From an uncultured Clostridia bacterium (GTDB taxonomy: Bacteria > Bacillota > Clostridia > TANB77 > CAG-508): a DNA stretch of 64,000 bases. Made by a program: the position numbers and the translations under genes. The notes beneath the pieces were generated by a model. It had not been told where the DNA came from and did no database searches. It worked only from the letters and a program-made list of their open reading frames with translations. Below are positions 24,977-57,039 of this stretch, in pieces. The stretch covers positions 21,587 to 85,586 of the forward strand of contig CALXXZ010000006.1 of assembly GCA_944392805.1 (NCBI GenBank), written 5' to 3'. How positions within the stretch are numbered: the first letter of the stretch is position 1; every line of letters begins with the position of its first letter.

Positions 24977-25179
24977 ATAACCTCTCCTATTATAAATTCA
25001 TTCATAATGGCTAATATATCATATATGCAATTTTTTTTCAAGTTATGCCATTCGATTTTTTTCGACATTTTTTATTATACAATACTTTTGTGAATTTAGT
25101 GTGAATTTTTTTACCAGAGTGGCACTCCTTTTTTATCTAAAAAATACCAAAGGAAATAAGTTCCCTCTGGTAAATCTTC

Positions 25180-30270: not shown

Positions 30271-32173
30271 TGCTACTTTCCTCTATTTTTTTATTTAATT
30301 CGTCCCATTGGATCATCTGTGTTTCAATTTCTTTATTTAAATTTTGTATTTTATCTTGCAATTCTTTTAATTTTATATAATCTGTACTATTTTCTTCCTT
30401 TAACATTTCTTGCTCAAGCATTTTTATTTCATTTTCTTTTTGTTCAATTTCATTTTCAATTTTATTTACTTTATTTTTCATTTTATTAATTTCTTTATTA
30501 ATAAAATATGAATTATTAACTTTTTTATCTTTTACTTTATTTTCTGTGTTTATTTCTTCAAAAGTACTTTCTTCTCTTTTTTGAAGATATTCTTCATAAG
30601 TTCCATTAAAATATGTAACCTGATTAGGTTCAAATATTAATAATGAATCTGCTATTTTGTTTACAAAATATCTATCATGTGATACAAAAATTATTGTTCC
30701 TTCATATTCTTTAAGTATATTTTCTAAACTTTCTTTTCCTACAATATCCATATGATTTGTCGGTTCGTCTAATAAAAGTAAATTAGGTGTTTTTTTCAAT
30801 ATTTTGCATAATTGAAGTCTACCTTTTTCTCCTCCAGAAAGTACATTTATTTTTTTGAATACATCTTCTCCTGTAAAAAGAAATGTTCCTAAAATTGTTC
30901 TTACTTGTGTTGTTGTAAGCTCAGGAAATTCACTAGCAAATTCATCAAACACAGTATTCTCTGGGTTTGAAAATTCCATCTGTTGGTCAAAATATCCTCT
31001 TTTTACATGATATCCATATTCAAGCTCTCCTCCTAATTTTGGAATATCTCCATTCAATGTTTTTAATAATGTAGATTTTCCTATTCCATTTTCCCCAATT
31101 ATGCCTAATTTTTGACCTTTATATAATTCAAATGATATTTTTTGAATTGGTTGATTATAACCTATTTCTAAATTCTTTACTGATAATACAGTTTTTCCGC
31201 TTTCTGTTTCAATTTTAAAGTTTGCATGAAATGTTTTTAAATCATATTTATTTGGTTCTTCTATAATTGTCATCTGCTCTATTTTCTTTAATTTTGATAA
31301 TGCCATTTTAGCTTTTGTTGGCTTATATCTAAATCTATCTGCAATTGATTTTAATCTTTTTATTTCTGCTTGTTGATATTCATAATCTTTTAATTGTTTT
31401 TCATAGTTTGCCTTTTTTTGTTTTTCAAATTCTGCATAATTTCCTGAATATTCTGTTAATCTTGCATATTCGATTTCATATACTTTATTTACTATTCTGT
31501 CCAAAAACATTCTATCATGCGATACTATTACTACTGCTTTTGGATAATTTCTTAAATAAGTCTCTAACCATTCTATTGCTGAAATATCTAAATGGTTTGT
31601 TGGTTCATCTAATAAAAGAAGTTCCGGCTTACTTAAAAGTAGTTTTAAAAATGCTATTTTAGTTCTTTGGCCTCCAGAGAATTCATTTATTTTTTTATGC
31701 TTGTCTTTTTCAGAAAAACCGAATTTTTTGATGGCTATTTCATATTCTTTTTTATATGTATATCCATCAAGCATTTCAAATCTTTCCATAGAGTTGGTAT
31801 ATTCTTTTATAATTTCTTCACTTGAATCTGTTTGTAATTTTTCTGCTAATCTTGAAATTTTTTCTTCGAGTTTTATTATTGGTTCATATACTTTTAATAT
31901 TTCTTCTAACATTGTGTTGTCTGAATTTTCAAAGTTTATTTGTTTTAAAAATCCAATTTCAATGTTTCCTTGTTTGATTATATTGAATTTTTCTTCACCA
32001 ATTCCTTCTTCTAACATTGAATTGTCTACTAATGAATTTAATAATGTAGTTTTTCCGCTTCCATTTCTCCCTACAATTGCAATTTTATCTTTTTCTTTTA
32101 TTTCAAAATTTATTTCTTCTATTATTGTTTCTGCTCCAAATGTAATTGAGCCATTTGTTATTTTATAATTCAT
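30263..32173 (-). CDS. ABC-F family ATPase (tandem ABC domains, no transmembrane segment; ribosome-associated translation factor class)
   Basis: 636 aa. Two sets of Walker A (GRNGSGKTT / GENGIGKST), signature (FSGGQRTK / LSGGEKGR) and Walker B (LLLLDEPTNHLD x2) are present, with an inter-domain linker and a C-terminal coiled-coil. Confidence 0.8.
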   Translation of the reverse strand: MNYKITNGSITFGAETIIEEINFEIKEKDKIAIVGRNGSGKTTLLNSLVDNSMLEEGIGEEKFNIIKQGNIEIGFLKQINFENSDNTMLEEILKVYEPIIKLEEKISRLAEKLQTDSSEEIIKEYTNSMERFEMLDGYTYKKEYEIAIKKFGFSEKDKHKKINEFSGGQRTKIAFLKLLLSKPELLLLDEPTNHLDISAIEWLETYLRNYPKAVVIVSHDRMFLDRIVNKVYEIEYARLTEYSGNYAEFEKQKKANYEKQLKDYEYQQAEIKRLKSIADRFRYKPTKAKMALSKLKKIEQMTIIEEPNKYDLKTFHANFKIETESGKTVLSVKNLEIGYNQPIQKISFELYKGQKLGIIGENGIGKSTLLKTLNGDIPKLGGELEYGYHVKRGYFDQQMEFSNPENTVFDEFASEFPELTTTQVRTILGTFLFTGEDVFKKINVLSGGEKGRLQLCKILKKTPNLLLLDEPTNHMDIVGKESLENILKEYEGTIIFVSHDRYFVNKIADSLLIFEPNQVTYFNGTYEEYLQKREESTFEEINTENKVKDKKVNNSYFINKEINKMKNKVNKIENEIEQKENEIKMLEQEMLKEENSTDYIKLKELQDKIQNLNKEIETQMIQWDELNKKIEESSNE

Positions 32174-32237
32174 TAAAATCCCCTCATTTGCTATTAGATT
32201 TTAACACAAATAAAGGGATTTTTCAATATAAATGTAT

Positions 32238-32642
32238 TTATTGTTTTCTATCCATGTTCATACATGTTCCATCATTCATGTAGAATTTCTTTTCTGCTAA
32301 TTTGTCTTGTACTCCTCTTAATGCTTCTCCAAATCTTTGAAAATGTACTATTTCTCTTTCTCTTAAGAATCTTAATGGATCTATTACATCTGGGTTGTCT
32401 CTACACAAATCTATTAATTTTTCATAAGTTGCTCTTGCTTTTTGCTCTGCTGCTAAGTCTTCTTGTAAGTTTGCTATTGCATCACCTTTACATGCTATAT
32501 ATGCTGCTGTAAATGGCATTCCTGCTGCTGATTGTGGATATACATCAACACCATGGTCTGTATAATATGGTCCTAATCCTGCTGCTTCTATTTCTTCTAT
32601 TGATGCTCCTTTTGTCAATTGATGAACTATTGCCCCAATCAT
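32238..32642 (-). pseudogene. cotJC: Spore coat protein CotJC (Mn-catalase family), C-terminal fragment (attB-distal half of a split gene)
   Basis: 134 aa from an internal Met. The in-frame upstream codons GTKELAHLE continue the CotJC sequence. ...LAHLEMIGAIVHQLTKGAS...AAGLGPYYTDHG...AAEQKARATYEKLIDL...LRFLREREIVHFQRF matches the CotJC/Mn-catalase C-terminal half. A stop lies immediately upstream at the insertion junction. Confidence 0.8.
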
Positions 32643-32678
32643 TTCTAAGTGAGCTAATTCTTTAGTACCATGTTCTTA

Positions 32679-34577
32679 TCAATCAATTTCAATAGCACCA
32701 GTATATAATCCATAATAAGTACCTTTTTTAGCAATTAATTCATTATGATTTCCTCTTTCAATAATTCTACCGTGGTCTAAAACCATAATTAAATCTGAAT
32801 TTCTAATAGTAGACAATCTATGTGCTATAACAAAAACAGTTCTTCCTTTCATTAATTTATCCATTCCTTCTTGAACTATTTTTTCTGTTCTTGTATCAAT
32901 ACTTGATGTAGCCTCATCTAATATTAAAACTGGTGGATTATTTAGTGCTGCTCTTGCAATAGATAATAGCTGTCTTTGTCCTTGAGATAAGCCTTCCCCA
33001 TTTCCTGTAATCATAGTATCATAACCTTGTGGTAAGTTTTTAATGAATTTATCTGCATTAGAAAGTTTTGCTGCTTCATAAACTTCTTCATCTGTTGCAT
33101 CTAATTTTCCATATCTGATGTTATCTTTTATAGTTCCTGTAAATAAACTAGTATCTTGTAAAACCATTCCTAAAGATCTTCTTAAGTCATCTTTTTTGAT
33201 TTTTCTGATATTGATTCTATCATAACGTATTTTTCCTTCTTGAATATCATAGAAACGATTTATTAAATTTGTAATTGTAGTCTTACCTGCCCCTGTTGCT
33301 CCAACAAATGAAACCTTTTGCCCCTCTTTTGCTGATAAAGTGATATCATGTAATATTCTTTTATTTTCTTCATAGCCAAATTGAACATTTTCAAATTCAA
33401 CTTGACCACGCAATCTTGTATATGTAATTCTTCCATCTTGATGTGGATGTTTCCAAGCCCATATTCCTGTTCTTTCTTTTGACTCTACGATTTTTCCATT
33501 TTCCATTTTAGCATTTACTAATGTAACATATCCTTCATCAATTTCTACTTCTTCGTCTATTAAGTCAAATATTCTTTCTGCTCCCGCTAATGCCATAACT
33601 ATGAAATTCATTTGTTGTGACACTTGACCTAATGGGTTTGTAAATGCTTTTACAAATTGTAAAAATGCTGCTATACTTCCTATTGTTAATATTCCATTAA
33701 CTGATAGCATTCCTCCTATTACTGCTACTAATACATATCCTAAATTACCAATATTCATTATACATGGCATTAAGATATTAGCATACATATTTGCTTTTGC
33801 ATTACTATCACATAAGTTTTCATTTAATTCATCAAATTTATTTTTAGATTGTTCTTCATAATTAAATACTTTAACAACTTTTTGACCTTCCATCATTTCT
33901 TCTATATATCCATCCATTTTCCCCAGGTCTTCTTGTTGTTTTACGAAATATCTTGAACTGTTTCCACCTAAATATTTAGATACAAATATCATTATAATCA
34001 TCATTGCAACAACTACTAATGTTAAATATATATTTGTAGTAAACATAGATATTAAAATTGTTACCATAGATACAATTGCTGAAAATACTTGTGGTATACT
34101 TTGGCTAAGCATTTCTCTTAAGCTATCTACATCATTTGTATAAATACTCATTATTTCCCCATGTGGTCTACTATCAAAATATATAATAGGTAATTTTTGC
34201 ATATGATTGAATAATTGTTTACGTATTTTATTTAATATTCCTTGAGATATGTTTATCATTAATCTATTATAAATGTATGTAGCTATTACTCCAACTAAAT
34301 ATATTAATGCCATTGTCATTATAACATTAAATAATGCTGTATAATCAGGATTTTGACTTCCTAGAAGTGGAGTAATAAAATCATCTATTAAATATTTAAT
34401 AAATTCAATACCAGCTACTCCTACTAATGAACTTATAATAATACTTATTAAAACAATAGCTAATTGTAATTTATAAGTTGTAAATACATATCCCAAAAGT
34501 CTTTTTATTGTAGCCCATTTTGTTCTTTTCTTTTTATTCTCCATCTTCTTCGTCATCTCCTTTCTTTTGAGATTCAT
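32679..34577 (-). CDS. ABC exporter, fused permease/ATPase (type I exporter, heterodimer partner B)
   Basis: 632 aa. An N-terminal six-transmembrane domain and a C-terminal NBD carry GATGAGKTT, LSQGQRQLLSIARA and ILDEATSSID. Confidence 0.8.
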   Translation of the reverse strand: MNLKRKEMTKKMENKKKRTKWATIKRLLGYVFTTYKLQLAIVLISIIISSLVGVAGIEFIKYLIDDFITPLLGSQNPDYTALFNVIMTMALIYLVGVIATYIYNRLMINISQGILNKIRKQLFNHMQKLPIIYFDSRPHGEIMSIYTNDVDSLREMLSQSIPQVFSAIVSMVTILISMFTTNIYLTLVVVAMMIIMIFVSKYLGGNSSRYFVKQQEDLGKMDGYIEEMMEGQKVVKVFNYEEQSKNKFDELNENLCDSNAKANMYANILMPCIMNIGNLGYVLVAVIGGMLSVNGILTIGSIAAFLQFVKAFTNPLGQVSQQMNFIVMALAGAERIFDLIDEEVEIDEGYVTLVNAKMENGKIVESKERTGIWAWKHPHQDGRITYTRLRGQVEFENVQFGYEENKRILHDITLSAKEGQKVSFVGATGAGKTTITNLINRFYDIQEGKIRYDRINIRKIKKDDLRRSLGMVLQDTSLFTGTIKDNIRYGKLDATDEEVYEAAKLSNADKFIKNLPQGYDTMITGNGEGLSQGQRQLLSIARAALNNPPVLILDEATSSIDTRTEKIVQEGMDKLMKGRTVFVIAHRLSTIRNSDLIMVLDHGRIIERGNHNELIAKKGTYYGLYTGAIEID

Positions 34578-36315
34578 ATACTTCTTTATAAATTTCGTTT
34601 GTCTTTAATAATTCTTCTGATGTTCCTATTCCATCAATTTCTCCATCATTTAATACAATAATTCTATCTGCATCTTCTATTGATGTTACTCTTTGTGCAA
34701 TTATTATTTTTGTTGTGTTTGGTATTTCTTCTCTAAATGCTTTTCTAATTAAACTATCTGTTTTTGTGTCTACTGCACTTGTAGAGTCATCTAATATTAG
34801 GATTTTTGGTTTTTTTAGTATTGCTCTTGCAATACATATTCTTTGTTTTTGACCTCCTGATACATTTGTTCCACCTTGATCTAAAACTGTTTCATATTTT
34901 GAAGGAAATTCTTGTATAAATCCATCTGCTTGTGCTAATTTACATGCATTTTCTAGTTCTTCTAGGTCTGCATTTTTCTTTCCCCAACGTAGATTTTCTG
35001 CAATTGTTCCAGAAAATAATACATTTTTCTGTAATACCATTGCTACTGAATCTCTTAATGCATGTATATCATAATCTTTTACATTAACTCCTCCTACTTG
35101 AATTTCACCTTTTGTTGCATCATAAAGTCTTGGTATTAATTGTACTAATGTTGATTTTGAACTTCCTGTTCCTCCTATTATTCCTATTGTTTCTCCTTCT
35201 TTTATTTCTAAATCGATATTTTTTAATGCAAATTTATTTTTATCTTCTTCATCACTATAACAGAAACTAACATTTTTAAATGTTATTGAACCATTTTTTA
35301 CTTCTTTAACAGGGTTTTCTGGATTTTTCAAACTTGGTTCTTCTTCTATTACTTCCATTATTCTTTCTGCTGATGATTGTGAAATGATAATCATTACAAA
35401 TACCATTGAAAGCATCATTAAACTTGATAATATTTGCCATGCATATGTAATTATACTTGATAGTTGCCCTGTTTGCATGCTTCCTCCAACTATTAGTTTT
35501 GAACCGAACCATGATATTAATAAAATACATGTATAAATTGTTAATTGCATTACAGGACTATTAAATGCTACTATTTTTTGAGCTTTTATGAAGTTTTTAT
35601 ATACTTCATCATTTACTTCTTTGAATTTTGCTTCTTCTGTGTCTTCACGCACATATGCTTTTACAACTCTTATTGCGTTTAGATTTTCTTGTACTACTCT
35701 ATTTAATTTGTCATATTTTTTGAATACTTTTTCGAAAATAGGATGTGCTTTTGTTGCTATTAAAAATAAAATAACTCCTAAGAATGGAATTGCAACTAAA
35801 AAGATTAAAGATAATTTACCACTAATTGATAATACCATTAAAAGTGCAAATATCATCATTATAGGTCCTCTTACTAATATACGTATTATCATTTGAAATG
35901 CCATTTGTACATTTGTTACATCTGTTGTCATTCTTGTTACTAAACTTGATGTTGAGAATTTATCTATATTTTCAAATGCATAATCTTGTACTTTATGAAA
36001 CATTTCTTTTCTTAGATTTTTAGCATATCCTGCTGAAGCTATTGCTGCAAATCTTCCTGATAACATTCCAAAAATTAATGACATTATTGCTGATATTATT
36101 AATAATATTCCCATCTTCAAAATGTAGTCAATATCACTGTTTTGAATTCCGACATCTATTATTCTTGCCATAAGAAGTGGTATAATAACTTCCATTATAA
36201 CTTCTAATACAACAAATATAGGTGTAAGTATTGCTTGTTTTTTGTACTCTTTAACATAACTTGCTAGTTTTTTTATCATTTTTTCTCCTTCCTTTCTTTT
36301 TAACATTAGTCTCAA
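34534..36315 (-). CDS. ABC exporter, fused permease/ATPase (heterodimer partner A)
   Basis: 593 aa. NBD motifs GGTGSSKST, VSGGQKQRICIARA and ILDDSTSAVD are present. It overlaps its partner gene by 44 nt. Confidence 0.8.
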   Translation of the reverse strand: MRLMLKRKEGEKMIKKLASYVKEYKKQAILTPIFVVLEVIMEVIIPLLMARIIDVGIQNSDIDYILKMGILLIISAIMSLIFGMLSGRFAAIASAGYAKNLRKEMFHKVQDYAFENIDKFSTSSLVTRMTTDVTNVQMAFQMIIRILVRGPIMMIFALLMVLSISGKLSLIFLVAIPFLGVILFLIATKAHPIFEKVFKKYDKLNRVVQENLNAIRVVKAYVREDTEEAKFKEVNDEVYKNFIKAQKIVAFNSPVMQLTIYTCILLISWFGSKLIVGGSMQTGQLSSIITYAWQILSSLMMLSMVFVMIIISQSSAERIMEVIEEEPSLKNPENPVKEVKNGSITFKNVSFCYSDEEDKNKFALKNIDLEIKEGETIGIIGGTGSSKSTLVQLIPRLYDATKGEIQVGGVNVKDYDIHALRDSVAMVLQKNVLFSGTIAENLRWGKKNADLEELENACKLAQADGFIQEFPSKYETVLDQGGTNVSGGQKQRICIARAILKKPKILILDDSTSAVDTKTDSLIRKAFREEIPNTTKIIIAQRVTSIEDADRIIVLNDGEIDGIGTSEELLKTNEIYKEVYESQKKGDDEEDGE

Positions 36316-36357
36316 AGCATTATTTTAAGATAAATTTTTTTATTTGTCAAGAAAAAT

Positions 36358-36388
36358 AATTATCCCCCAGTATAACTGGGGGATAATT
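36358..36388. promoter_or_regulatory. Perfect 14-bp-arm palindrome in a divergent promoter region (candidate operator)
   Basis: aattatcccccagt-ata-actgggggataatt lies between the ABC exporter operon (minus) and the surface-protein/sortase operon (plus). Both genes point away from it, so it is not a terminator for either. Confidence 0.4.
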
Positions 36389-36498
36389 ATGCAAATTCAC
36401 CTTTTATCAAATAAAAATTTTTGGAAAAAATTTTTAATGATTTTTGTAAATATTTAAAATTAAAAAGGAGACAATAATTTTTGATGGAGGTGAAAAAA

Positions 36499-37623
36499 AT
36501 GAATAAAACAATAAAATTCATTTTATTTTTTATAATAACAGCTATTTTTGCAATTATACTACCTAATTATAGTAATGCTGCAACAACAGCTCATGATGAA
36601 GAATCTTTAAATAGTGTAATTTCAAGTGCGGATCCAGGAGCAACAATAACATTACAAAATGATATTACAGTAACAAAACCAATTGTAATTGCTAAAGAAT
36701 TAACAATTGATGGTAATGGTCATAATGTAGTTGGTTCTAATGATTGGACATCAACATCAGGAAATCAAACAATGTTTACAGCTCAATTTTCTGCAGCTAA
36801 ACTTACATTAAGAAATATTCAATTAAAAAATGGTCCAAAATATGGTGTACAATCTTATGATGGTGCAACTGTAATTTTAGATAATGTTTCAATTTCAGGA
36901 TTTAAATTCGGTGGTGTTCTTGCAAATGGTGGTAATGTTGAAGTTAAAAGATTACATTTAGGAAAAAATGGTACTAACGAAAATAATGGTATAGAAATTG
37001 ACAAAGGTTCTGCCGCTACTAATAACCCAAGCTTAGTCATGAATGGTGTTTTAACAACTGATTCAAATCAAAATGTAATTCGTCCAGCTGAAAATGGTCA
37101 TTTAACAGATTTTACTATTACAAATACACCTGCTACTACAAACAAAGTTGTTTTATCAGGAAATAAAGTTGTTTTAACTGACTCAAAAAATAATGTTATT
37201 TCAGAAACAACTATACCAAGTAATGCTAAACCAAATGTAGATGTAAAACAACTTATTGTTACTATTTTTGCTAAGGATGTGACTTATAAAATCACAGTAA
37301 ATTCAGGTGAAAAAATTACAGCTGATTTATTAAAATCTCATATTAAACTAGAAAATAATCAAGTTGTTGATGGATTCTATACAGATGCAAATTTTGCTAA
37401 TGCTTTTGATTTTAATACTTCTATAACTACTGATACTACTGTCTATGCAAAAATATCAAAAGTTGAACCAACTGTACCAGAAACTCCACCACAAGTAAAT
37501 AATGGAGTAAAAGATGAAACACCAAAAACTGGTGCTCAAAATTATTTAGGAATAGCTGTATTAACTATATTATTCTCAATAGTAGCAATTGTAACTATTA
37601 ACAAGAAAAATATAAAAGGATAG
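36499..37623 (+). CDS. Cell-wall-anchored surface protein (beta-helix-like repeats) with C-terminal sortase-B-type sorting signal TPKTG
   Basis: Signal peptide MNKTIKFILFFIITAIFAIILPNYSNA, and a C-terminal ...ETPKTGAQNYLGIAVLTILFSIVAIVTINKKNIKG (motif, hydrophobic helix, basic tail). The start was chosen at 36499 after GGAGGTG. Confidence 0.6.
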   Translation: MNKTIKFILFFIITAIFAIILPNYSNAATTAHDEESLNSVISSADPGATITLQNDITVTKPIVIAKELTIDGNGHNVVGSNDWTSTSGNQTMFTAQFSAAKLTLRNIQLKNGPKYGVQSYDGATVILDNVSISGFKFGGVLANGGNVEVKRLHLGKNGTNENNGIEIDKGSAATNNPSLVMNGVLTTDSNQNVIRPAENGHLTDFTITNTPATTNKVVLSGNKVVLTDSKNNVISETTIPSNAKPNVDVKQLIVTIFAKDVTYKITVNSGEKITADLLKSHIKLENNQVVDGFYTDANFANAFDFNTSITTDTTVYAKISKVEPTVPETPPQVNNGVKDETPKTGAQNYLGIAVLTILFSIVAIVTINKKNIKG

Positions 37624-37665
37624 TCTTTAAGGTCTATCCTTATATAATATATTTTTGGAGTTAAC

Positions 37666-38481
37666 ATGGAAAAAACTAAAAGATTTTATGTTTTTATATA
37701 TTTTGTTTTAGTTTTATTAATTTTTTTATCAGTTATATACATCACATATTCTATGTTATTAAAAAAAGAAGCTATTGAAGAAAGTAACTTATTGAATAAT
37801 ATTAGTGATGATAAAATTGTTAGTAATGTTATAAGAAAAAATACAATTTCAAATACTACAGAATCTCCAGTTGAAACAACACCTAAAGAAACAGACAGAA
37901 TGCTTAAGGTAAAAGAACTTAAAAATCAAAATTCTGATATTGTAGGTTGGTTAGAAATACCCAATACTAGTATTAATTATCCAGTTTTACAAGGTTCTGA
38001 TAATCAATATTATATGAATCACAATTATAAAAAACAAAAGTCTAAAAATGGTTCTATTTTTTTAACAAAGGATTATAATTGGGAAATTCCAAGTAGTAAT
38101 TTTTTAATATACGGTCATAATTTGAATAATGGCACAATGTTTCAAGAATTATTAAAATATTCTAGTAAATCTTTTTATGAACAACATCCTAAAATTCGTT
38201 TTACAACTGTGAAAGATGATTCAGAATATGAAATTATTGCTGTTTTTAAATCAAGAGTATATTATCAATCAGAAAAAAATGTTTTTAGATATTATTTTTT
38301 TGTGAATGCTGAAACAGAACAAGAATATAATGATTTTATACAAAATGCGAAAAATGCATCTTTATATAATATTGATGCTACGGCAAAATATGGAGATCAA
38401 TTAATTACCTTATCTACTTGTTCTTATCATGTCAAAGATGGAAGATTTGCTGTGGTTGGAAGAAAAATTGAAAAATTATAA
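37666..38481 (+). CDS. srtB: Class B sortase
   Basis: 271 aa. N-terminal membrane anchor, then catalytic His (LIYGHN) and the TLSTC active-site Cys motif with a downstream Arg (FAVVGRK). A strong hairpin terminator follows at 38484-38515. Confidence 0.8.
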   Translation: MEKTKRFYVFIYFVLVLLIFLSVIYITYSMLLKKEAIEESNLLNNISDDKIVSNVIRKNTISNTTESPVETTPKETDRMLKVKELKNQNSDIVGWLEIPNTSINYPVLQGSDNQYYMNHNYKKQKSKNGSIFLTKDYNWEIPSSNFLIYGHNLNNGTMFQELLKYSSKSFYEQHPKIRFTTVKDDSEYEIIAVFKSRVYYQSEKNVFRYYFFVNAETEQEYNDFIQNAKNASLYNIDATAKYGDQLITLSTCSYHVKDGRFAVVGRKIEKL

Positions 38482-38753
38482 CAGTCATACAATTACAAAA
38501 TAATTGTATGACTGCCCTATTCTTTCATATCTATTTTATCAATTTTCGGATATCAATATTAGGTATTTTTTTATTCCGTGCTCATAAATTTTATAGAGGC
38601 GATTTTTATGATATTAGAAGAATATACCCTAGAAAATACAAAAATAAAATTTTACGATGATTATATAGTTAAGAATATTGATACTCAAAAAGAATATATA
38701 AATAATGTTATTATAAATTTGATAAGAAAATCCTTTTCATGAAAGGAGAAATT

Positions 38754-40301
38754 ATGCAAGATGGCACATATGCAATATATCTAAGAAAATCTAGAGAAGA
38801 TATTGAAGCTGAAAAATATGGTGAAGGCGAAACTTTAGCAAGACATGAAAAAATTTTAACTACTTTAGCCGAAAAGCGAAATCTACCCATTTCAAGAATT
38901 TATAAAGAAGTTGTAAGTGGCGAAACAATCAGTGAAAGAAAAGAAATGCAAAAACTTTTAAAAGATGTTGAAAATGAGAAATGGACTGGTATTTTAGTTG
39001 TTGAAGTAGAAAGACTTGCTCGTGGCGATACTGCTGATCAAGGTATAGTTGCAAAAGCCTTCAAATATTCACATACAAAAATTATCACTCCTATGAAAAT
39101 ATATGACCCTGACAATGAATTTGATGAAGAATATTTTGAATTTGGTCTATTTATGTCTAGAAGAGAATATAAAACTATAAATAGACGTTTACAAAGAGGA
39201 CGTGAACTCTCAGTTCAAGAAGGTAAATTTGTTGGAAATATTGCTCCATTTGGCTATGATAGATTAAAACTAAAAGATTCAAAAGGATATACCCTATCTA
39301 TAAATCAAGATGAAGCACTTATAGTTAAAGAAATTTTTAGATTATATGCTTTTGAAAATGCGACTTTAAATTCAGTTGCACAACAGCTAAATGATCTAAA
39401 TTTGAAACCTAGAATTGCAAATGAATGGACAATTTCTTCTGTTAAAGATATTCTTTCTAATCCTACCTATATTGGTAAAATTGCATGGAATAGAAGAAAA
39501 CAAAAAAAGAAAACCAAAAATGGAAATATTATCATTACTAGACCTCGTAACACAGAGTTTTTAATTTATGATGGATTACATGAACCTATTATTGATAATA
39601 AAACTTGGATTATAGTTCAGGAAAAAAGAAAACAAAATACTCCTAAAATAAAACATAGCAATACTATTCAAAATCCATTAGTAGGACTCGTTTTTTGTGA
39701 AAAATGTGGCAAGCTAATGCAAAGGCGACCTTATTCAAAAGATGGTAAGCCTGCAACTTTAATTTGTTCTAATCCAAAGTGTGATAATGTAAGTTCTAAA
39801 CTTTATATTGTTGAAAATAAAATTATCGAATCATTAAAAATATGGCTTAAAAATTTTAAAATAAATTATGATTTTAAAAATAACTCAAGTTTCAATAATG
39901 AAATAATTGAAAAATCTATTGTTTCAACTCAAAAAGAACTAAAAAAAGAAAATTTGAAGCTTGATAAAGTTTATGTGTTTTTAGAAAATGGATTGTATAA
40001 TAGTGATGAGTTTATTAATCGTTCAAAAATTATAAAAAATAATATTGAAAGTTTAGAAATTAAATTAAATAAATATAATTCTTTATTACAACAAAATTTA
40101 GAAGATCAAAAAAATACTACAATACCAAGTTTAGAAAATGTTATGGATTTATATTATAAACTAGAGACTGCTGGAGATAAAAATGCTTTTCTAAAGTGTT
40201 TACTTTCAAAAGTTACATATTTGAAAACAAAAAAGTCTATAAAAAAGGATTCTGACCCAACTAATTTTGAATTACATTTATATCCTAAAATATTAATCTA
40301 A
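38754..40301 (+). CDS. Large serine recombinase (resolvase/invertase catalytic domain + recombinase domain + zinc ribbon + coiled-coil)
   Basis: N-terminus MQDGTYAIYLRKSRED carries the catalytic Ser, and ...VVEVERLARGD is resolvase-like. Zn ribbon CEKCG...CSNPKC and a C-terminal coiled-coil follow. AAAGGAG lies 6 nt before ATG 38754. Confidence 0.85.
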   Translation: MQDGTYAIYLRKSREDIEAEKYGEGETLARHEKILTTLAEKRNLPISRIYKEVVSGETISERKEMQKLLKDVENEKWTGILVVEVERLARGDTADQGIVAKAFKYSHTKIITPMKIYDPDNEFDEEYFEFGLFMSRREYKTINRRLQRGRELSVQEGKFVGNIAPFGYDRLKLKDSKGYTLSINQDEALIVKEIFRLYAFENATLNSVAQQLNDLNLKPRIANEWTISSVKDILSNPTYIGKIAWNRRKQKKKTKNGNIIITRPRNTEFLIYDGLHEPIIDNKTWIIVQEKRKQNTPKIKHSNTIQNPLVGLVFCEKCGKLMQRRPYSKDGKPATLICSNPKCDNVSSKLYIVENKIIESLKIWLKNFKINYDFKNNSSFNNEIIEKSIVSTQKELKKENLKLDKVYVFLENGLYNSDEFINRSKIIKNNIESLEIKLNKYNSLLQQNLEDQKNTTIPSLENVMDLYYKLETAGDKNAFLKCLLSKVTYLKTKKSIKKDSDPTNFELHLYPKILI

Positions 40302-40400
40302 TCACATAAAAATACTACTTTAACAACAATTGTGAAAGAATAAATATGTGCATTTTTAAGCATATTTATTCTTTTGAATATTCTCCCAAATGAAGAGTAT

Positions 40401-40883
40401 TTAATTTTTATCTTTTAATAAAACATTTCTCATTTCAACTATATCATAAAAAGGAATATGTATTCCTTCTTCTGCTAATCTTACTACTCTTAATGCAATA
40501 GTTATAATCTCATCTTTAACTACTTTTGGAATTTCTACATCTATATTTGAATTTATATACTTTTCTGCTATGTATTTTTCAGTAGTTGGAAAAATATTTT
40601 GTATCAAGAATACAGCTTTTTTTCCTAACACATTTCCAAAAACAAAATTATATACCGGTCGATTTCCAATTTTTAATTTTTTATTATCATAGATTTTTTT
40701 GTATTTATCATATTTAGTTGATATAGGAACAAACCATATTATTTCTTTATCTTTTCTATCTCTAAAACAAAAATAGCAAGGTCTTTTATTTCCAGATTCT
40801 TTATTTTTCATTAATTTATATTTTTTAAATATATCAAAAAACTCATCTTTTATAAAATAAAATTTTCCATCTTCTATTACCAT
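40401..40883 (-). CDS. ToxN/AbiQ-like endoribonuclease toxin candidate (type III toxin-antitoxin / abortive infection)
   Basis: 160 aa. The N-terminus KFYFIKDEFFDIFKKY...NKRPCYFCF...VPISTKY...FLIQNIFPTTEKY matches the ToxN/AbiQ pattern (KFY.I..Y...L..FD.KV...RP/NP....PL[ST]S.K; ...MIPI.E). It is immediately preceded by tandem repeats and a terminator in the type III toxin-antitoxin arrangement. Confidence 0.5.
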   Translation of the reverse strand: MVIEDGKFYFIKDEFFDIFKKYKLMKNKESGNKRPCYFCFRDRKDKEIIWFVPISTKYDKYKKIYDNKKLKIGNRPVYNFVFGNVLGKKAVFLIQNIFPTTEKYIAEKYINSNIDVEIPKVVKDEIITIALRVVRLAEEGIHIPFYDIVEMRNVLLKDKN

Positions 40884-40953
40884 TCTTTATCTCCTTTTAT
40901 GAAAATATGGGATCTAACTTAACTTTATAGACCCCATATTTTTACTATACTTA

Positions 40954-41060
40954 ACATTTTTTCACCTGCACATTTATATCTCGCAAGCAGGGTTGCGGTT
41001 CACATTTTTTCACCTATCCATTTATTCGACGCAAATAGGGTTGCGACTCACATTTTTAAT
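40954..41060 (-). ncRNA. Candidate type III antitoxin RNA: 2.2 tandem 48-nt repeats upstream of the ToxN-like gene
   Basis: R1 acattttttcacctgcacatttatatctcgcaagcagggttgcggttc and R2 acattttttcacctatccatttattcgacgcaaatagggttgcgactc are ~75% identical. Each has a conserved cgcaa-N6-ttgcg stem. A partial third repeat follows. A hairpin (aaatatgggatctaac...agaccccatattt, ~40905-40945) separates the repeats from the toxin gene. Confidence 0.5.
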
Positions 41061-41201
41061 TATAGTAGATATAAAATATCTACTACTATTATATTCATTA
41101 TACACACTTTTTATTAATATTTCAAGATTTATTTACAAATTAATTGAAAAAATTTTGGAAATTCACTAAATATGTTTTAATGTCTCTAGCTATTGACAAC
41201 A

Positions 41202-41408
41202 TCATGATACCCATTCTTCAGTACCAATATCATTTAATATAGCTTTTGCATTTTGGTCAGGCATACCAAATCTTTGAGACAAATATCTTAAAGAAGCCGC
41301 AAGTTCACCATCAGGACCTCCATATTGAGAAATTATTACTTTTGCAAGACGAGGGTCTGTGCATTTAATATTAACCGGATATTGTAGCATTTTATTATAA
41401 GTCCACAT
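41202..41408 (-). pseudogene. cotJC: Spore coat protein CotJC, N-terminal fragment (65 native codons + 3 element-encoded codons), with native ribosome-binding site
   Basis: MWTYNKMLQYPVNIKCTDPRLAKVIISQYGGPDGELAASLRYLSQRFGMPDQNAKAILNDIGTEE matches the CotJC N-terminus (B. subtilis MWVYEKKLQYPVKVS...LLTDIGTEE). It is followed by WVS-stop from the insertion. AAGGGGGAA lies 8 nt upstream of the ATG. Confidence 0.8.
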
Positions 41409-41472
41409 TTAAAAATTCCCCCTTTCCCAAGGCCACCCTTGGTTCAATATGGAGGAATTTTTTATAATTGTT

Positions 41473-43057
41473 TCATGCAGAAATATCAAATTTATACTTT
41501 ATATTGACATTTCTATCATCTATAACAATTCTATCAATTAACTTAAAAGCTAAACTTACATTTTCATCATTCAATTCATTAAGGTCTAAAATTTCTTTTA
41601 TTAAATCTCTATTATTTTTTCTTACATTAGCACTCTCTATTTTCTTTATTTCATATCTTTTTATCTCAATTTCTAATTGTTGTTTTTGACTTTCATATTT
41701 TTTTATAAGGTTTGAAAAAGTATCTTGTGAGATTATTTTAGCTATTTTATCTTCATATAAGTTACTTATTAATTTATTAACTTCTCGTTTTTTATTTTGA
41801 ATATTCATAATATCATTTTCATCATTTTCTTTATTTTGGATACCGTTTAAATTGCAAATCTGAAATATTTAAGAATTTTTGTATATTATTTTTTAATGAC
41901 CTTCTAACGATTTCTATTAATTCATCTTCTCTTATGTGGACACCTTCGCAAAAGTTTTTTCCATATTTTTTATAATTTGAACACACACATCTAAAATATC
42001 TGCCATGATTTTTATTATATGTAATTTTACTACCACATTTACAATAAACTAAGCCTGTTAATAAATGTCTTTTTCTATTAGAATAATTCCATTCATTTGT
42101 CTGTTTTTCTAGCATTTCTTGTACAGTATTATAAACTGCTCTACTTATTATAGCAGGATAATTATTTTCTACTATCACTTGTTTATCTGGAGATACTTTT
42201 TCAGTTTTTTGTATCTTATAATTTATTTTTTTAGATTTCAGTTGAATTAAATCTCCCACATAGCTTCTATCTCTCAATATCTTATTAATAATTGTAGAAT
42301 TCCATTTATATGTACAATTCTGTTTTGCATTTGGATTATAATAATTTGTTGTGTCTTGCTTATGTTGTAATGGTGTTTTTATTCCCCACTCATTAAACTT
42401 ATTTGCAATTTGTGTTTTTGAATTTCCTGACATATATAAATCAAAAATCTTTCTTACATTATCAGCAACTTCTTCATCTATTAATATATTATTTTTATTG
42501 TGTATATCTTTTTTCAAGCCATATGGTAAAAATGGTTTTATACATTCTCCTGCATTTGCTTTTGTAGTAATTACTGTTCTTACTTTATTTGAAATATCTT
42601 TTGCATACATATCATTAAATACTGCTTTAAACGGTGTTATATCGCTACTAAAATTATTTATATCAAATGTATCTATATTATCATTGACTGCGATATATCT
42701 TACTCTTTTTTCTGGAAAGTATTTCTCTAAAAATCGTCCTGTTTCTATGTAATCCCTTCCTAATCTTGATAAGTCTTTTGTAATAACTAAATTGATTATT
42801 CCATTTTCTATGTCTTTTATCATTCTCTGAAAAGCTGGTCTATTAAAATTTGTTCCAGTATAGCCATCGTCTGAATAAATGTCTATTAAATTCCATTTCA
42901 TTTTTAATACGACATTTTTTAAGAATTTAATCTGATTTTCAATACTTTCTGATTGACTTTTATATTTTGCTTCTTTCTCATCTTCTCTTGATAGCCTTAC
43001 ATATATGGCCACTTTCCATGTACCTTCTTCTACTAAATAGTTATCTGACTCATACAT
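41473..43057 (-). pseudogene. Second large serine recombinase, interrupted by a stop plus +1 frameshift (408-aa + 111-aa ORFs); probably inactivated
   Basis: 43057..41831 encodes the catalytic domain (AIYVRLSREDEKEAKY...), the recombinase domain and a zinc ribbon (CKCGSK...CVCSNYKKYGKNFC). 41808..41473 encodes the C-terminal coiled-coil expected in the same protein. The two are out of frame and 22 nt apart. The gene ends 64 bp from the cotJC ATG. Confidence 0.65.
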
Positions 43058-43457
43058 ACTTCCCTCCTATCTTGAGTCTATAACTACTTTTCTATTGTTC
43101 TTGAAATAAAAAAATAATTATTTTCATCAATCCAACTTTGAATTAAGTCCAATAATTTCTTCCCATCTTTTGTATATGTTTCTGTTATATTTTCATTCAA
43201 TGTAATCACCTCAATACAGTATATGCATTGGCAGTAAAAAATAGTTAAGAAATGGTTTCTTAGCTATTTTTTTGAATTGAATATAATATTTATGAATATA
43301 TTTTATATTAATTTTTTGATTATGTCTACTCTATTTTTTTACCTTTTTTTATCTTTATGTTATTTTCTGCCAAAATTTCCTATAATATTCAAGGTTGAAT
43401 TTTTAGTTTTTTATTGATACAATTCCAAAAAATAAAATTTTTAAAGGAGATATTGTT

Positions 43458-44003
43458 TTGGAAGAACTAATAAAAAATACATTGAATGGTGATAAGCATT
43501 CTTTTGAAGTTTTAATTGATTCTGTAGAAAGCGACTTATATCGTGTTGCACAAGCTAAACTTAGTAATATTGATGATATAAATGATGCTATTCAAGAAAC
43601 AATTACTAAAGCTTATTCTAAACTACATACTTTAAAGAAATCGAAATATTTTAGAACTTGGATTATAAAAATTTTGATTAATGAATGTAATGTTATTTAC
43701 AGAAAGAAGTATAAGCAAGCTAAAATTTTTAATAAATTATCTATTTCTAAAATTACTGATGAGGTTACTAATCCTTTTAATATTGTGGAAGATAAAATTG
43801 ATTTTGATATTTTACTTAAACATTTAAACGAAAAAGAACAATTAATTTTAGCTTTATATTTTAATAGTAAATTTATTCCTGATGAAATATCTGATATTTT
43901 GGGCATTAATGTAAATACTGTTAAAAGTATAATTTATAGAGCTAAAGAAAAACTTAAAAAATTTGTGGAAAAGGAGGAATTAGATAATGAATCAAGAAAA
44001 TAA
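43458..44003 (+). CDS. ECF-type sigma-70 family RNA polymerase sigma factor (paralog 1 of 3)
   Basis: 181 aa. Region 2 (DDINDAIQETITKAYSKL...WIIKILINECN) and region 4 (ISDILGINVNTVKSIIYRAKEKL) are present. TTG start with AAAGGAGA ribosome-binding site. Confidence 0.7.
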   Translation: MEELIKNTLNGDKHSFEVLIDSVESDLYRVAQAKLSNIDDINDAIQETITKAYSKLHTLKKSKYFRTWIIKILINECNVIYRKKYKQAKIFNKLSISKITDEVTNPFNIVEDKIDFDILLKHLNEKEQLILALYFNSKFIPDEISDILGINVNTVKSIIYRAKEKLKKFVEKEELDNESRK

Positions 44004-45045
44004 TGATAACTTAGATAAATTTTTATTTGATGCATATGAAAAAAATAAAGATATTCCTCTTTCTACTCAGAATATTATTGATAATACTATTGATAATTTA
44101 TTTGCTGAGAAAAATGTTAAACATAAAAAATCTTTTAATTTTGTACTAAAAAGAGTTGCTGTTTTGGTAATTTCACTTAGTGTCGTTACAGCTTCTACCG
44201 TTTTTGCTAAGGATATTATTAATTTCTTTACTTCGATTTTTACTAATAGCAATAAAGGCGTAGATACTGCTGTTGAAAATGGCTATGTGCAAAATGTGGA
44301 TATGGATTTTATTGAAGATAATAATTTGGGTGTTAAAGTTGATTATGTGCTTATGGATGACCACAATCTTAATATTTCATTTGTATATAAATACTTGGGT
44401 GATGATGTTTCTCAAATTACTGGGTTGAATTATATGGATTTAACTATTAAGGATGAAAATGAGAATGTTTTATATAGGTCTTCTAAAGATAATCAAAATG
44501 ATAATATGGTAAGTAATATTACAAAATACACAAACAATCAACAAATTATAGATAACACTACAATTAGAAGTTCTTTATTAGCTGCTTCTAATAATTTTCC
44601 AAAATCGGAAATGTTGTATATTTCAATAAATAATATATCTTTAAATAGTAATGATGAACTTATAAATGTTAATGGTAATTGGAATTTCTCAATAAATTTA
44701 GCTGATAAATTTATATATAGAACTAGTTATAAATATAATTGTAGTGATAATAAATATATTAACAATATAGAAACTTTACTTACAGACACTTCTTTAAAGA
44801 TCACTTTACAATTAAATACACCTTTTAATAAAAATATGATTTATTTGTACAATTCTATTATTTTAAAAGACGTTGATAATAAAGTATATTCTTATACTGA
44901 AATGTCAAGTAAAAATACCTCTGATTCAACTAGTTCAATTACATTATTTTATCCAATTACAATTTATGATACAAATATTGATAAATTATTTTTACATATT
45001 GATTTAGATACAGATAAAAGTATTGATATAGAATTATTAAAATGA
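43987..45045 (+). CDS. Putative anti-sigma factor: short cytoplasmic N-terminus, single transmembrane helix, large Asn/Ser-rich extracytoplasmic domain
   Basis: 352 aa. It overlaps the sigma gene by 17 nt. Transmembrane helix RVAVLVISLSVVTASTVFA. A terminator follows at 45050-45075 (gaggcatcaccaagatgcctctttt). Confidence 0.45.
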   Translation: MNQENNDNLDKFLFDAYEKNKDIPLSTQNIIDNTIDNLFAEKNVKHKKSFNFVLKRVAVLVISLSVVTASTVFAKDIINFFTSIFTNSNKGVDTAVENGYVQNVDMDFIEDNNLGVKVDYVLMDDHNLNISFVYKYLGDDVSQITGLNYMDLTIKDENENVLYRSSKDNQNDNMVSNITKYTNNQQIIDNTTIRSSLLAASNNFPKSEMLYISINNISLNSNDELINVNGNWNFSINLADKFIYRTSYKYNCSDNKYINNIETLLTDTSLKITLQLNTPFNKNMIYLYNSIILKDVDNKVYSYTEMSSKNTSDSTSSITLFYPITIYDTNIDKLFLHIDLDTDKSIDIELLK

Positions 45046-45134
45046 GAGGCATCACCAAGATGCCTCTTTTACAAGAAAATGATTCAATCAAATTAAATTA
45101 TTTACAGCTTCTCATTTAAATCTTTAGACGCATT

Positions 45135-45671
45135 TCAGCCCCATGTATCGAAATACATACATACTCTTAAATTAGAACTGCTACCAGTTACAAGGTAATA
45201 CTTGAAATAATATGTCCTATTAGGGACAATCTTTACATTAGGTACTGTTATTGCAGTACCATCCGCTGTTGCTGTAGCAATAACTAAACAATTATTATTG
45301 TAATCCCACAGCTCCGCAGAAACTTGTTTATTTGGATAGGAATTTCCATCCGCTCCAATTACCTCAAGGGTAAAATTGAGATAATTGCCACTATATTTTC
45401 TATCAGCACCACGGTAGTAGTTTCCTTTCATCGTAAAACATGACTGTATTAAATAGGTTCCTACACCATTTTCATCGACACTTTCCGGTGTCAACTCCAT
45501 TTCGTACGTTGTCCGTGTCTTTCCATTATCCAGTTTTTCGACTGAAACAATTTTTCCATTTGGATTTTCATTGTCAGCCTCGGCTGCAAGAGATACCATA
45601 GAAAAATTAGAAAAGCCCATCAACATAGCCATTACAAAAGCAACAATCCGATTTCTTTTTTTGGTCAACAT
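45135..45671 (-). CDS. Secreted protein of unknown function with clearly higher GC than its surroundings (likely horizontally acquired)
   Basis: 178 aa. Signal peptide MLTKKRNRIVAFVMAMLMGFSNFSMVSLAAEA. The coding sequence is roughly 38-40% GC against a ~25% background, with codon usage using C/G third positions. Confidence 0.5.
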   Translation of the reverse strand: MLTKKRNRIVAFVMAMLMGFSNFSMVSLAAEADNENPNGKIVSVEKLDNGKTRTTYEMELTPESVDENGVGTYLIQSCFTMKGNYYRGADRKYSGNYLNFTLEVIGADGNSYPNKQVSAELWDYNNNCLVIATATADGTAITVPNVKIVPNRTYYFKYYLVTGSSSNLRVCMYFDTWG

Positions 45672-45948
45672 ACATTTTCCTCCTTATTCTAGACCCAATT
45701 AAATCATTTTCCTGCTAAACCAATAAGTTACAGTTTGAAATTTATCTTAAACTTAACTATTGATTTCAAGTTATTACTTGTTTTGTACAGTTTCGTACAT
45801 TTCTTGGTAATTTTAGCACAAAAAGTTACAAAAAATAAAAAAAGGTAAAAAAAGATAAATATTTTTTACTTTTTTTCGACATTTTTTTAATATTTTGCAT
45901 TCGAATATCATTTTTTCGCATCTAATGTTTGGGAGATGGAAGGAAAAA

Positions 45949-46668
45949 ATGTTAAATTTACTTATTATTGATAAAGATGTTAATCATTCTATGAAATTAC
46001 TTAATGAATTTTCAAAAAATGCTGAAATTAAAGTATATAATGTTACTAGCACATTATTAGATGGAATTAAACTTTTAAATACTGGTATTATAGACATAAC
46101 TATAATAAATCTTAATTGTACAATTGATGAAATTACTAATGCTTTTAAACTAATTTCGAAATCATATATTGAAAAATACAACAAATCTATGATTGTATTG
46201 TCTAGTAAGGTTAGCAAATTGACTTCAAATGATTTTGTATACAGTTTTATTGATGATACTGAAGATATTTCAAAAATTTATATTAAAACTTGTGAAATAG
46301 TTGAAAACAAGTTTTATAAAATAAATAAAATTGATTTACTTACTAAGATAAATAAAGAATTAGAATATATTGGTTACAATATGTCCTATAATGGAACAAA
46401 ATACTTATCTGAATGTATTGCGCTAATTTATAGTAGTCATGATTATAGTGAAAATTTGAACAAAAACATTTATCCTGTTATTGCTAAAAAATATAATAAA
46501 ACTATCAATAATGTTAAGTGTAGTATCACTTGTGCAACTACTTCTATGTTTTATGATTGTGATGAAACTAGATTAAAAAATTATTTTAATTTTTATACTG
46601 TTATTAAGCCAAAACCTAAAGTCGTTATTTATACGATATTGAATAAAATTTATAATATAAAGTGCTAG
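45949..46668 (+). CDS. Spo0A-like protein: degenerate receiver domain (phospho-acceptor Asp replaced by Asn) + Spo0A C-terminal DNA-binding domain
   Basis: The C-terminal ...NIYPVIAKKYNKTINNVKCSITCATTSMF aligns to the Spo0A_C helix-turn-helix region ([26 protein letters not shown]). The N-terminal ~110 aa have a receiver-like pattern (IIDKD...ITIINLN...MIVLSS) but Asn sits at the Asp56 position. The start was chosen at 45949 after GGAAGGA. Confidence 0.5.
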   Translation: MLNLLIIDKDVNHSMKLLNEFSKNAEIKVYNVTSTLLDGIKLLNTGIIDITIINLNCTIDEITNAFKLISKSYIEKYNKSMIVLSSKVSKLTSNDFVYSFIDDTEDISKIYIKTCEIVENKFYKINKIDLLTKINKELEYIGYNMSYNGTKYLSECIALIYSSHDYSENLNKNIYPVIAKKYNKTINNVKCSITCATTSMFYDCDETRLKNYFNFYTVIKPKPKVVIYTILNKIYNIKC

Positions 46669-46747
46669 TACAAAAAATAGAAGAATATCAATAGTTAGAA
46701 AAAACTATTGATATTCTTCTTTAATAATCATGGATAATTGTATAAAT

Positions 46748-48275: not shown

Positions 48276-48283
48276 ATTTATAC

Positions 48284-49035: not shown

Positions 49036-49128
49036 TTTTGTTCCTCCTTTTTTTATTTTACTACATTATATGACAGAATTATTAAAAGAGTTAACATTTT
49101 CAAACGCTAACTCTTTTTAAGTAAATAT

Positions 49129-49425: not shown

Positions 49426-49487
49426 TTATATCATATTTTTCAAAAAAAAGAAAGCTTAAATTTTTACATTTAAACTTTCTTTTTAAT

Positions 49488-51044: not shown

Positions 51045-51045
51045 A

Positions 51046-53411: not shown

Positions 53412-53414
53412 TCT

Positions 53415-56033: not shown

Positions 56034-56036
56034 AAT

Positions 56037-57038: not shown

Positions 57039-57039
57039 T

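Follow-up and report, generated by a model that had tools for sequence, protein, structure and literature searches.

A candidate gene-intervening element with a large serine recombinase divides the spore-coat gene cotJC in uncultured gut Clostridia

How can a spore-coat gene serve its host when its two halves lie 8.6 kb apart? This question is raised by a stretch of 64,000 nucleotides from an uncultured Clostridia bacterium (contig CALXXZ010000006.1, positions 21,587 to 85,586), here called the window, in which the coat gene cotJC is divided by an insertion, element A, that encodes a large serine recombinase (LSR), LSR-A (Table 1). Element A is probably a non-phage gene-intervening element of the skin/SPbeta/gin class that is excised during sporulation to rebuild cotJC. 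That excision would be linked to sporulation, taking place in the mother cell under sigma-E or sigma-K, is suggested by analogy with these systems and by a weak promoter resemblance.

The gene is interrupted after codon 65 of 204, within the metal-binding motif GTEE/LAHLE (...NDIGTEE/LAHLEMI..., the slash marking the break), at a point that aligns to EEFSHLEM of the solved Anabaena Mn-catalase 6j42. Beyond residue 65 (...AILNDIGTEE) the open reading frame (ORF) of the 5' fragment continues into WVS and a stop codon, and the EExxH-type Mn_catalase motif is complete only upon conceptual joining of both fragments. The joined protein of 204 amino acids matches Pfam Mn_catalase over residues 1-184 (E 2e-54) and aligns contiguously and at full length with intact CotJC proteins of relatives at 90-94% identity, for example 93% with protein P0005 from the cotJABC operon of locus L081. 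An initial annotation, made from the sequence alone, had placed an insertion of about 8.5 kb inside this conserved segment, with the 5' fragment at 41408..41214 behind a ribosome-binding site (RBS). All of this was borne out, the element measuring 8,556 bp and recurring in a second assembly and in relatives; only the proposed start of the 3' fragment, 32656, was off by one base, since L66 starts at 32657. No second copy of cotJC occurs within the 64-kb window. The gene for the coat-morphogenesis ATPase SpoIVA is intact (5051..6529, all three Pfam domains), so the source organism is very likely a spore former. The same split layout was found in dozens of other species and in L147, a separate assembly of the window's own species. 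A chimeric or wrongly joined assembly, which would have created the appearance of a split gene, is ruled out by the identical architecture in L147 and in 67 other loci from many studies, and we give it practically no credence.

These loci come from a scan of one genome per species, which returned 197 stretches with relatives of LSR-A (about 190 species genomes). Eighty of them were fetched (L001-L080; recombinase identity 74-82%), all from metagenome-assembled genomes of uncultured gut Clostridia in human, mouse, rabbit and chicken samples. In 67 of the 80 loci the recombinase gene is closely followed at its 3' end, in convergent orientation, by the cotJC 5' fragment (residues 1-65); the 3' fragment begins at residue 62 in 51, and both fragments are seen in 41. 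To regard the insertion as a single new instance, as had been done at first, was therefore an overstatement, as the family occupies the same codon in many species. The elements are 3.2-11.1 kb long, and clustering of their ORFs left the recombinase and a small ORF upstream of it as the only genes conserved among them. The variable cargo includes RhuM (14 of 42 elements), CptIN and ToxN type III toxins, a PBECR2 nuclease, an AAA_14 ATPase and radical-SAM genes.

The anatomy of the junctions is that which would be expected for an LSR site. Over the relatives, the attL consensus reads ...AATGATATTGGTACAGAAGAAT/GnGTACCATGATGTTGTCAAT and the attR consensus ATTGACAACATCATGGTACAGAAGAAT/TAGCTCAC...; within single loci, attR often has AAAGAA, or a differing GGnACn, where attL has GAAGAA, and on the attR side the base following GAAGAA is that of the host. 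From these differences the crossover can be located within (G)AAGAA, in the middle of the reconstructed attP palindrome. For element A, the predicted attB is AATGATATTGGTACTGAAGAATTAGCTCACTTAGAAATG, with the junction AATGATATTGGTACTGAAGAATTAGCTCAC, and the predicted attP is GATAAGAACATGGTACTAAAGAATGGGTATCATGATGTTGTC. At the attR end of the window (32657..32690), the stop codon of the adjoining exporter gene falls within the inverted arm and the cotJC 3' fragment shares the frame of that gene, with only TGA TAA between them; the shared frame is probably a coincidence.

Empty sites exist in nature and agree with these predictions. The CotJC proteins joined in silico were found exactly, among 15 billion predicted proteins, for four of ten species tested. 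In the species of L043, an uninterrupted cotJA-cotJB-cotJC operon is present on contigs of 22-42 kb (L149-L152). L149 consists, at the sites of both element A and a second element described below, of exactly the left part of attL and the right part of attR of the element-bearing L043; most of the flanking segments of the two are 98-99% identical at the DNA level, and the segment downstream of cotJC 93.6%. A 1.4-kb contig (L148) from the species of locus L009, the sister species of that of the window, carries an exact attB for element A and keeps the right end of the second element upstream. The empty attB alleles match the predicted join base for base, and their presence in the same species indicates that insertion and loss have been precise and recent within species. 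Judged from these alleles, the element A family shows itself to be an active, precise insertion/excision module; the timing of excision is a separate matter.

The enzyme for such a module is present. LSR-A carries the domains Resolvase (PF00239), Recombinase (PF07508) and Zn_ribbon_recom (PF13408), and its residues 9-507 align with SprA/YokA of SPbeta (9dxh; E 7e-47), the closest of all PDB sequences over the full length. YLRKSRED stands opposite YLRRSRQD with the catalytic serines aligned, and YLRKSREDIEAEK against YLRRSRQDMEREK. The Pfam domains and this alignment confirm the initial description of a full-length LSR with catalytic serine, recombinase domain and zinc ribbon, as well as its assignment to the enzyme class that excises skin and SPbeta, given that SprA, its closest solved relative, rebuilds spsM. 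The best phage relatives in GenBank are in Paenibacillus phage phiIBB_P123 (47%) and in the sigK-integrating Clostridium phage PhiS63 (40%). Across species, the ratio of nonsynonymous to synonymous polymorphism (pN/pS) of LSR-A is 0.18; by this measure the enzyme is intact and under purifying selection. Sequence look-ups returned no record of the exact LSR-A protein, nor of the exact joined CotJC and CotJB, of the window.

Large serine recombinases of gene-intervening elements excise with a small partner, the recombination directionality factor (RDF), and the small ORF is the best candidate for this role by position, size and strict co-occurrence. It is found in all 42 complete elements, upstream of the LSR gene and on the same strand in 41 of them; in the relatives it encodes 45-47 amino acids and lies about 60 bp upstream of the recombinase gene. 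Its pN/pS is 0.36, variation is highest at third codon positions, and 12 residues are invariant. It has been called as a gene in 245 protein clusters, always of 45-47 amino acids and all lacking annotation or a Pfam family. Pfam, PHROGs, NCBIfam and PADLOC hold nothing for it, and a profile search of the PDB gave chance matches only. The AlphaFold model (pLDDT 72) consists of a beta-hairpin and then a long helix. Foldseek against the PDB gave no significant match to this model, the top one (E 3.4, TM 0.45) being 9dxd_D, the 57-residue RDF chain of the SPbeta integrase-RDF-attL complex, a fold match that is a hint only.

When would this pair be expressed? The most conserved non-coding stretch of the elements is the 46 nt preceding the small ORF (Table 1); in 43 of 69 loci the C of CATAAA precedes the ATG by 25 nt. 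In the cotJA promoters of the clade, AAC or GTC stands 16-17 nt upstream of a (T)CATATAATGTA box, which in some is CATAAAAT, and these promoters look like mother-cell sigma-E/K promoters. The -10-like CATAAAT of the small ORF resembles the cotJA box CATAwwAT, while the -35 regions differ. Further upstream, between the cargo and the small ORF/LSR pair and about 60-190 nt before the small ORF in L001-L080, a sigma-A-like TTGAnn-17-TAnAAT promoter occurs in 41 of 69 relatives and a hairpin (CTCAAGACAAG/CTTGTCTTGGG) with a T-run in 47 of the 69; both are absent from the window (38482..38561) and from L009. The promoter and hairpin could act as an insulator or attenuator, or they could give rise to a small RNA. 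That this region upstream of the small ORF forms a riboswitch or small RNA was considered and rejected, the leader being too short, with no Rfam match, and the structure being absent from the window.

These signals bear on a reading in which the element is a reversible switch in growing cells, in the style of active lysogeny, with a non-replicating circle that re-integrates and so toggles cotJC or cargo independently of the mother cell. The sigma-A-like promoter upstream of the small ORF and LSR in most relatives speaks for such a switch, as does yin of Clostridium botulinum, for which excised circles appear at all growth phases. However, the window and L009 lack this promoter; in 47 of the 69 loci a terminator-like hairpin stands at the promoter region, a short way upstream of the small ORF; no replication genes are present that could maintain a circle; and if B. 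subtilis is a guide, only sporulating cells would need cotJ. We regard this switch as improbable.

Related phages use the same target. Viral contigs of 33-45 kb encode LSRs that are 39-47% identical to LSR-A, and four contigs of prophage type (LSRs 42-46% identical) contain cotJC fragments that end or begin at the same codon, which implies that these phages use an attB in cotJC. In three of these four loci the cotJC fragment directly follows the LSR gene, and the arms are homologous to those of the element A family. Plausibly, then, related and probably intact phages use the cotJC attB, and the small elements would be their reduced descendants. On the metagenome contig L142, a 53%-identical LSR is followed by an uninterrupted palindromic attP, with no cotJC, an arrangement that corresponds in its sequence to the unintegrated configuration predicted from the junctions. 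The reconstructed attP of the family was found in none of 2.9 million viral contigs, and one metagenome scan for it gave one contig, of a more distant relative.

Element A is not the only insertion in this operon. The initial annotation had described a single interruption and missed element B, which lies 220 bp upstream of element A and separates cotJA and most of cotJB from cotJC by 6.9 kb, so that the operon is split twice. Intact cotJB genes of relatives terminate ...EEPWPWEGGNF, and the two window parts of cotJB flank element B (Table 1). Elements with LSRs of two subfamilies occupy its site in 10 of 62 loci, and the site is empty in L149. With element B in cotJB, excision of element A alone would not restore the operon, and a full cotJABC transcript would need two excisions; if element B cannot excise, a rebuilt cotJC would depend on transcription from inside it. 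The recombinase of element B, LSR-B, is spread over two frames. Its 408-amino-acid part has a pN/pS of 0.19 between the window and L009. Programmed frameshifting was considered, and no convincing slippery site common to these two was found; LSR-B may be a recent pseudogene, a gene subject to recoding or an enzyme in two parts. The cargo of element B (43458..48275) comprises two extracytoplasmic function (ECF) sigma factors, each beside a candidate anti-sigma gene (one of them DUF4179), and a protein of 257 amino acids with a Spo0A_C DNA-binding domain (45895..46668). A Spo0A-like regulator on a mobile element could interfere with the sporulation decision. A third ECF sigma factor gene with a 518-amino-acid partner (49488..51567), similar in kind to the pairs of element B, lies outside both elements, a short distance upstream of cotJA.

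Other members of the clade have further insertions. LSR elements interrupt cotJC at about codon 101 (host CATGGnGT) in eight loci (L012, L015, L019, L020, L026, L036, L002 and L074) and at about codon 135 in four (L018, L025, L051 and L059); these have inverted-repeat ends of their own and recombinases about 33% identical to LSR-B. In L015 and L002 another element abuts the element A core, and L012 and L019 hold three elements within cotJB-cotJC. By this count, the cotJ operon is a hotspot for LSR elements in the clade: at least four LSR systems target cotJB/cotJC, and all leave precise, in-frame, rejoinable fragments. A bolder proposal, which we offer tentatively and would place slightly short of probable, is that the operon offers several landing sites to at least four unrelated LSR elements (at the cotJB 3' end and at cotJC codons of about 65, 101 and 135), that the coat operon is assembled from up to four pieces by independent mother-cell rearrangements, that anti-phage and toxin cargo resides there in a germ-line-safe niche, and that the 45-amino-acid ORF is a new RDF family.

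The state of the divided gene itself can be read from its substitutions. Across species, the ratio of nonsynonymous to synonymous substitution rates (dN/dS) is 0.09 over 62 sequences of the cotJC 5' fragment and 0.12 over 26 sequences of the 3' fragment. This cross-species signal may reflect history before insertion, the elements being mobile. The window and L009 have orthologous elements (ABC genes 96%, TPKTG protein 90% and sortase 84% identical) and also share the element B cargo and the LSR-B frameshift. Of the changes in cotJC that separate the two, 29 are synonymous and 11 nonsynonymous; none of the eight in the 5' fragment is nonsynonymous. The 3' fragment has a pN/pS of 0.135 and cotJA one of 0.11, and both cotJC fragments pooled depart from neutrality (binomial P = 3e-12). 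By these ratios, both halves of cotJC are under strong purifying selection in carriers, with a constraint like that on cotJA. The recombination module itself has diverged more in this pair: comparing window 38608..40301 with L009 9866..11563, the recombinase is 81% and the small ORF 70% identical, against 96% at the amino-acid level for the ABC genes, and synonymous divergence of the LSR gene (0.39) exceeds that of host genes (about 0.22). That the recombinase is less conserved than the cargo suggests that the recombination module has been swapped between elements.

The alternative that these data have to be weighed against is an ordinary integrative island or degenerate prophage remnant with an attB in a dispensable cotJC, which it inactivates. 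Its excision would be sporadic, and the fragments would look healthy through recent insertion and recombination with intact alleles. Several observations favour it and weigh against sporulation-linked excision. Elements vary within species. The divergence of LSR and host is uncoupled: co-divergence of LSR and CotJC, as under vertical inheritance, was rejected (Mantel r = -0.17), and across species the synonymous divergence of the LSR lies below that of the host. The same site is used by the related prophage contigs, and a few N-terminal fragments are disrupted, the cotJC fragments across species containing one stop codon and three frame disruptions (L004, L049, L059 and L073). According to a 2025 paper on the Clostridioides difficile phage phi027, B. 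subtilis mutants without coat CotJC show no apparent defect, and gene flow with intact alleles could account for some of the purifying-selection signal. Further points count against developmental excision in the window itself. The exact joined CotJC of its species is absent from the 15-billion-protein collection; its attR arm has three mismatches to the consensus arm; the LSR-B frameshift is common to the window, L147 and L009, LSR-B being undivided in L062 and L045; no known RDF is significantly similar to the small ORF product; and the promoter argument for sporulation timing is weak.

Against the island stand three observations. In the window and L009 the elements are orthologous, with cargo 84-96% identical, yet cotJC has accumulated only the 11 nonsynonymous beside the 29 synonymous changes given above; all of the LSR systems in cotJB/cotJC leave fragments that can be rejoined in frame; and minimal elements of 3.2 kb retain the LSR and small ORF only, which is what an excision module needs and is not transfer-competent. 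We consider the island unlikely, although it carries real weight, and sporulation-linked excision of element A probable.

Under sporulation-linked excision, LSR-A would integrate attP, with its two 19-bp inverted arms, into the cotJC sequence GGTACnGAAGAAT by a crossover within GAAGAA, splitting the gene at its di-manganese ligand motif. During sporulation the small ORF product would act as RDF and turn LSR-A towards excision, the two recombining attL with attR in the terminally differentiated mother cell. This would release a circle of 8.6 kb and restore cotJC in frame, while the forespore (germ-line) copy would retain the element and its cargo.

This scheme has precedents. Among the closest is gin in gerE of Bacillus cereus ATCC 10987, with the recombinase GirC and the 42-amino-acid RDF GirX (PMC5595907). 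Like element A, gin is small, lacks phage genes, interrupts a mother-cell sporulation gene and is bordered on both sides by a short direct repeat; its excision takes an LSR with a very small unannotated partner, to which the LSR and 44-amino-acid candidate of element A correspond. The two differ in target (gerE versus cotJC) and host (Bacillus versus an uncultured gut Clostridium). Unlike gin, element A carries defence/toxin-antitoxin and surface-protein/exporter cargo and has its candidate RDF directly upstream of the LSR gene in an apparent operon, and its excision is a prediction. SPbeta, a 134-kb active phage in spsM of Bacillus subtilis, uses SprA and SprB (PMC4191935, PMC5499854). LSR-A is most similar to SprA among solved structures and shares its YLRxSRxD catalytic motif, and the proposed logic is the same, in that an integrase would need a small RDF to rebuild a spore-envelope gene in the mother cell. 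In contrast to SPbeta, element A has 8.6 kb and no phage genes, and its small ORF has no detectable sequence similarity to SprB, only the non-significant fold match.

The skin elements in sigK are likewise LSR-mediated elements in a sporulation gene, excised by SpoIVCA in B. subtilis and by CD1231 with the acidic 72-amino-acid RDF CD1234 in C. difficile (PMC5025042). In the latter, the RDF gene has a sigma-E promoter that confers mother-cell specificity, with transcription starting 14 bp before the start codon (PMC5025042), a precedent for the very short leader of the small ORF; the promoter-like box of element A is similarly close to its small ORF. Element A differs in that its target is a coat enzyme rather than a sigma factor, so that excision would not gate the developmental programme, and the identity of LSR-A to phage integrases that target sigK, for example that of PhiS63, is only about 40%. 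A further characterised gene-intervening element is yin, in yabG of C. botulinum; vfbin and vrin are counted in the same class. The C. difficile phage phi027 sits beside a CotJC-like gene and not within it.

The cargo of element A was described correctly from the outset: an ABC exporter pair, a sortase B with a TPKTG substrate and a type III toxin-antitoxin module all hold (Pfam, TIGR03064, NF047359). In type III toxin-antitoxin systems a tandem repeat typically precedes the toxin gene. Rfam recognised no RNA family in 31000..50000, including the candidate cptI antitoxin RNA. Homologues of the CptIN toxin occur in at least eight related elements. In the window the toxin and repeats (40401..41057) are wedged between LSR-A and attL, a place where most relatives have a short hairpin of arm sequence (GTCAATAGCTAA...TTAGCTATTGAC). 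Of the element proteins that were scanned with PHROGs for phage genes, the integrase alone gave a match of known function, the other cargo having non-phage assignments, and PADLOC recognised none of seven element proteins scanned, except for one marginal match.

Outside the elements, the window contains at 52518..57777 three radical-SAM enzymes, an SDR, a PNP/UDP-phosphorylase-like protein, a HAD hydrolase and a histidine phosphatase. The cluster is conserved on L146, a contig of the same species, and probably forms a small-molecule or modified-nucleoside pathway. A YhgA-like transposase (PF04754) lies at 11587..12612. Genes for a 1436-amino-acid BcrAD/DUF2229-type protein and an 867-amino-acid ABC/FtsX protein are found downstream of cotJC in the window (20666..27783) and upstream of cotJA in the element-free L081 (332..8590); if their homology, judged by near-identical sizes only, is real, a local rearrangement around the cotJ operon is implied.

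Table 1. Coordinates of features of the divided cotJ operon and its two elements in the 64,000-nucleotide window.
Feature	Coordinates	Strand	Size	Remarks
cotJC C-terminal fragment	32238..32657	-		codons 66-204 and stop, in frame from L66 at 32657
Element A	32657..41212		8,556 bp	13-bp imperfect direct repeat GGTACT(G/A)AAGAAT at both junctions (41225..41213 and 32669..32657); 19-bp inverted arms
attR	32657..32683	-		inverted arm ATTGATAAGAACATGGTAC overlapping core GGTACTAAAGAAT
Two ATP-binding cassette (ABC) exporter genes	32679..36315	-		membrane domain fused to ATPase (Pfam)
Secreted protein	36481..37623	+	380 aa	TPKTG sorting signal, then membrane anchor
Class B sortase	37666..38481	+		TIGR03064, 163 bits
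Conserved block GGTATTTTTTTAT-N8-CATAAAT-RBS	38562..38607	+		before small ORF; possible promoter
Small ORF	38608..38742	+	44 aa	candidate RDF, upstream of LSR-A
LSR-A	38754..40301	+	515 aa	SprA-like LSR, convergent with cotJC 5' fragment
CptIN-family type III toxin	40401..40883	-		NCBIfam NF047359, 155 bits (cutoff 90)
Tandem repeat	40954..41057	-	48 nt x 2.2	candidate cptI antitoxin RNA, directly upstream of toxin gene
Inverted arm P' at attL-side element end	41192..41210	-		GTATCATGATGTTGTCAAT; one mismatch to family consensus GTACCATGATGTTGTCAAT
attL core	41213..41225	-		GGTACTGAAGAAT; direct-repeat copy beside 5' cotJC fragment
cotJC N-terminal fragment	41214..41408	-		codons 1-65, RBS upstream
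cotJB 3' tail	41409..41432	-		PWERGNF and stop, immediately before cotJC ATG
Element B	41433..48352		6,920 bp	in cotJB 3' end at core TGG; inverted-repeat ends; own LSR
LSR-B	41473..43057	-	408 aa + 111 aa	parts in different frames, frameshift near 41831-41846; Pfam domains on 408-aa part
cotJB 5' part	48353..48676	-		codons 1-108, ends ...EEPW and enters element B; Pfam CotJB E 2e-23
cotJA	48676..49035	-		first gene of operon; same exact protein called Pfam CotJA on other contigs; clade-conserved CATATAAT box upstream

The initial annotation held that cotJC is not a commonly cited interrupted gene. The searchable full-text literature indeed contained no description of a cotJC-intervening element, its att sites, the small ORF or its spread in gut Clostridia; but a preprint (bioRxiv 10.1101/2021.11.22.469490) names cotJC as a target of phage or transposon integration in a general statement, attributed to Abe et al. 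2013 (Mol Microbiol), whose examples come from species outside the B. subtilis clade. As a target gene cotJC is thus not unprecedented and had been mentioned in passing; new here are the clade-wide spread, the multiple sites and the conserved 45-amino-acid partner.

Were excision not developmental, element A would be an ordinary integrative element with a favoured attB in cotJC. If it is developmental, a coat enzyme gene would be added to the few sporulation genes that programmed DNA rearrangement is known to rebuild, which would extend such rearrangement to abundant uncultured gut Clostridia, and the double, elsewhere triple, interruption of the operon would raise the question of how the excisions are coordinated. 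The compact system of a recombinase related to SprA, a 45-amino-acid partner and att sites of about 50 bp might then serve as a genome-engineering tool. It would also mean that tiny non-phage elements with defence or toxin-antitoxin genes can persist within genes that are needed only by a dying cell.

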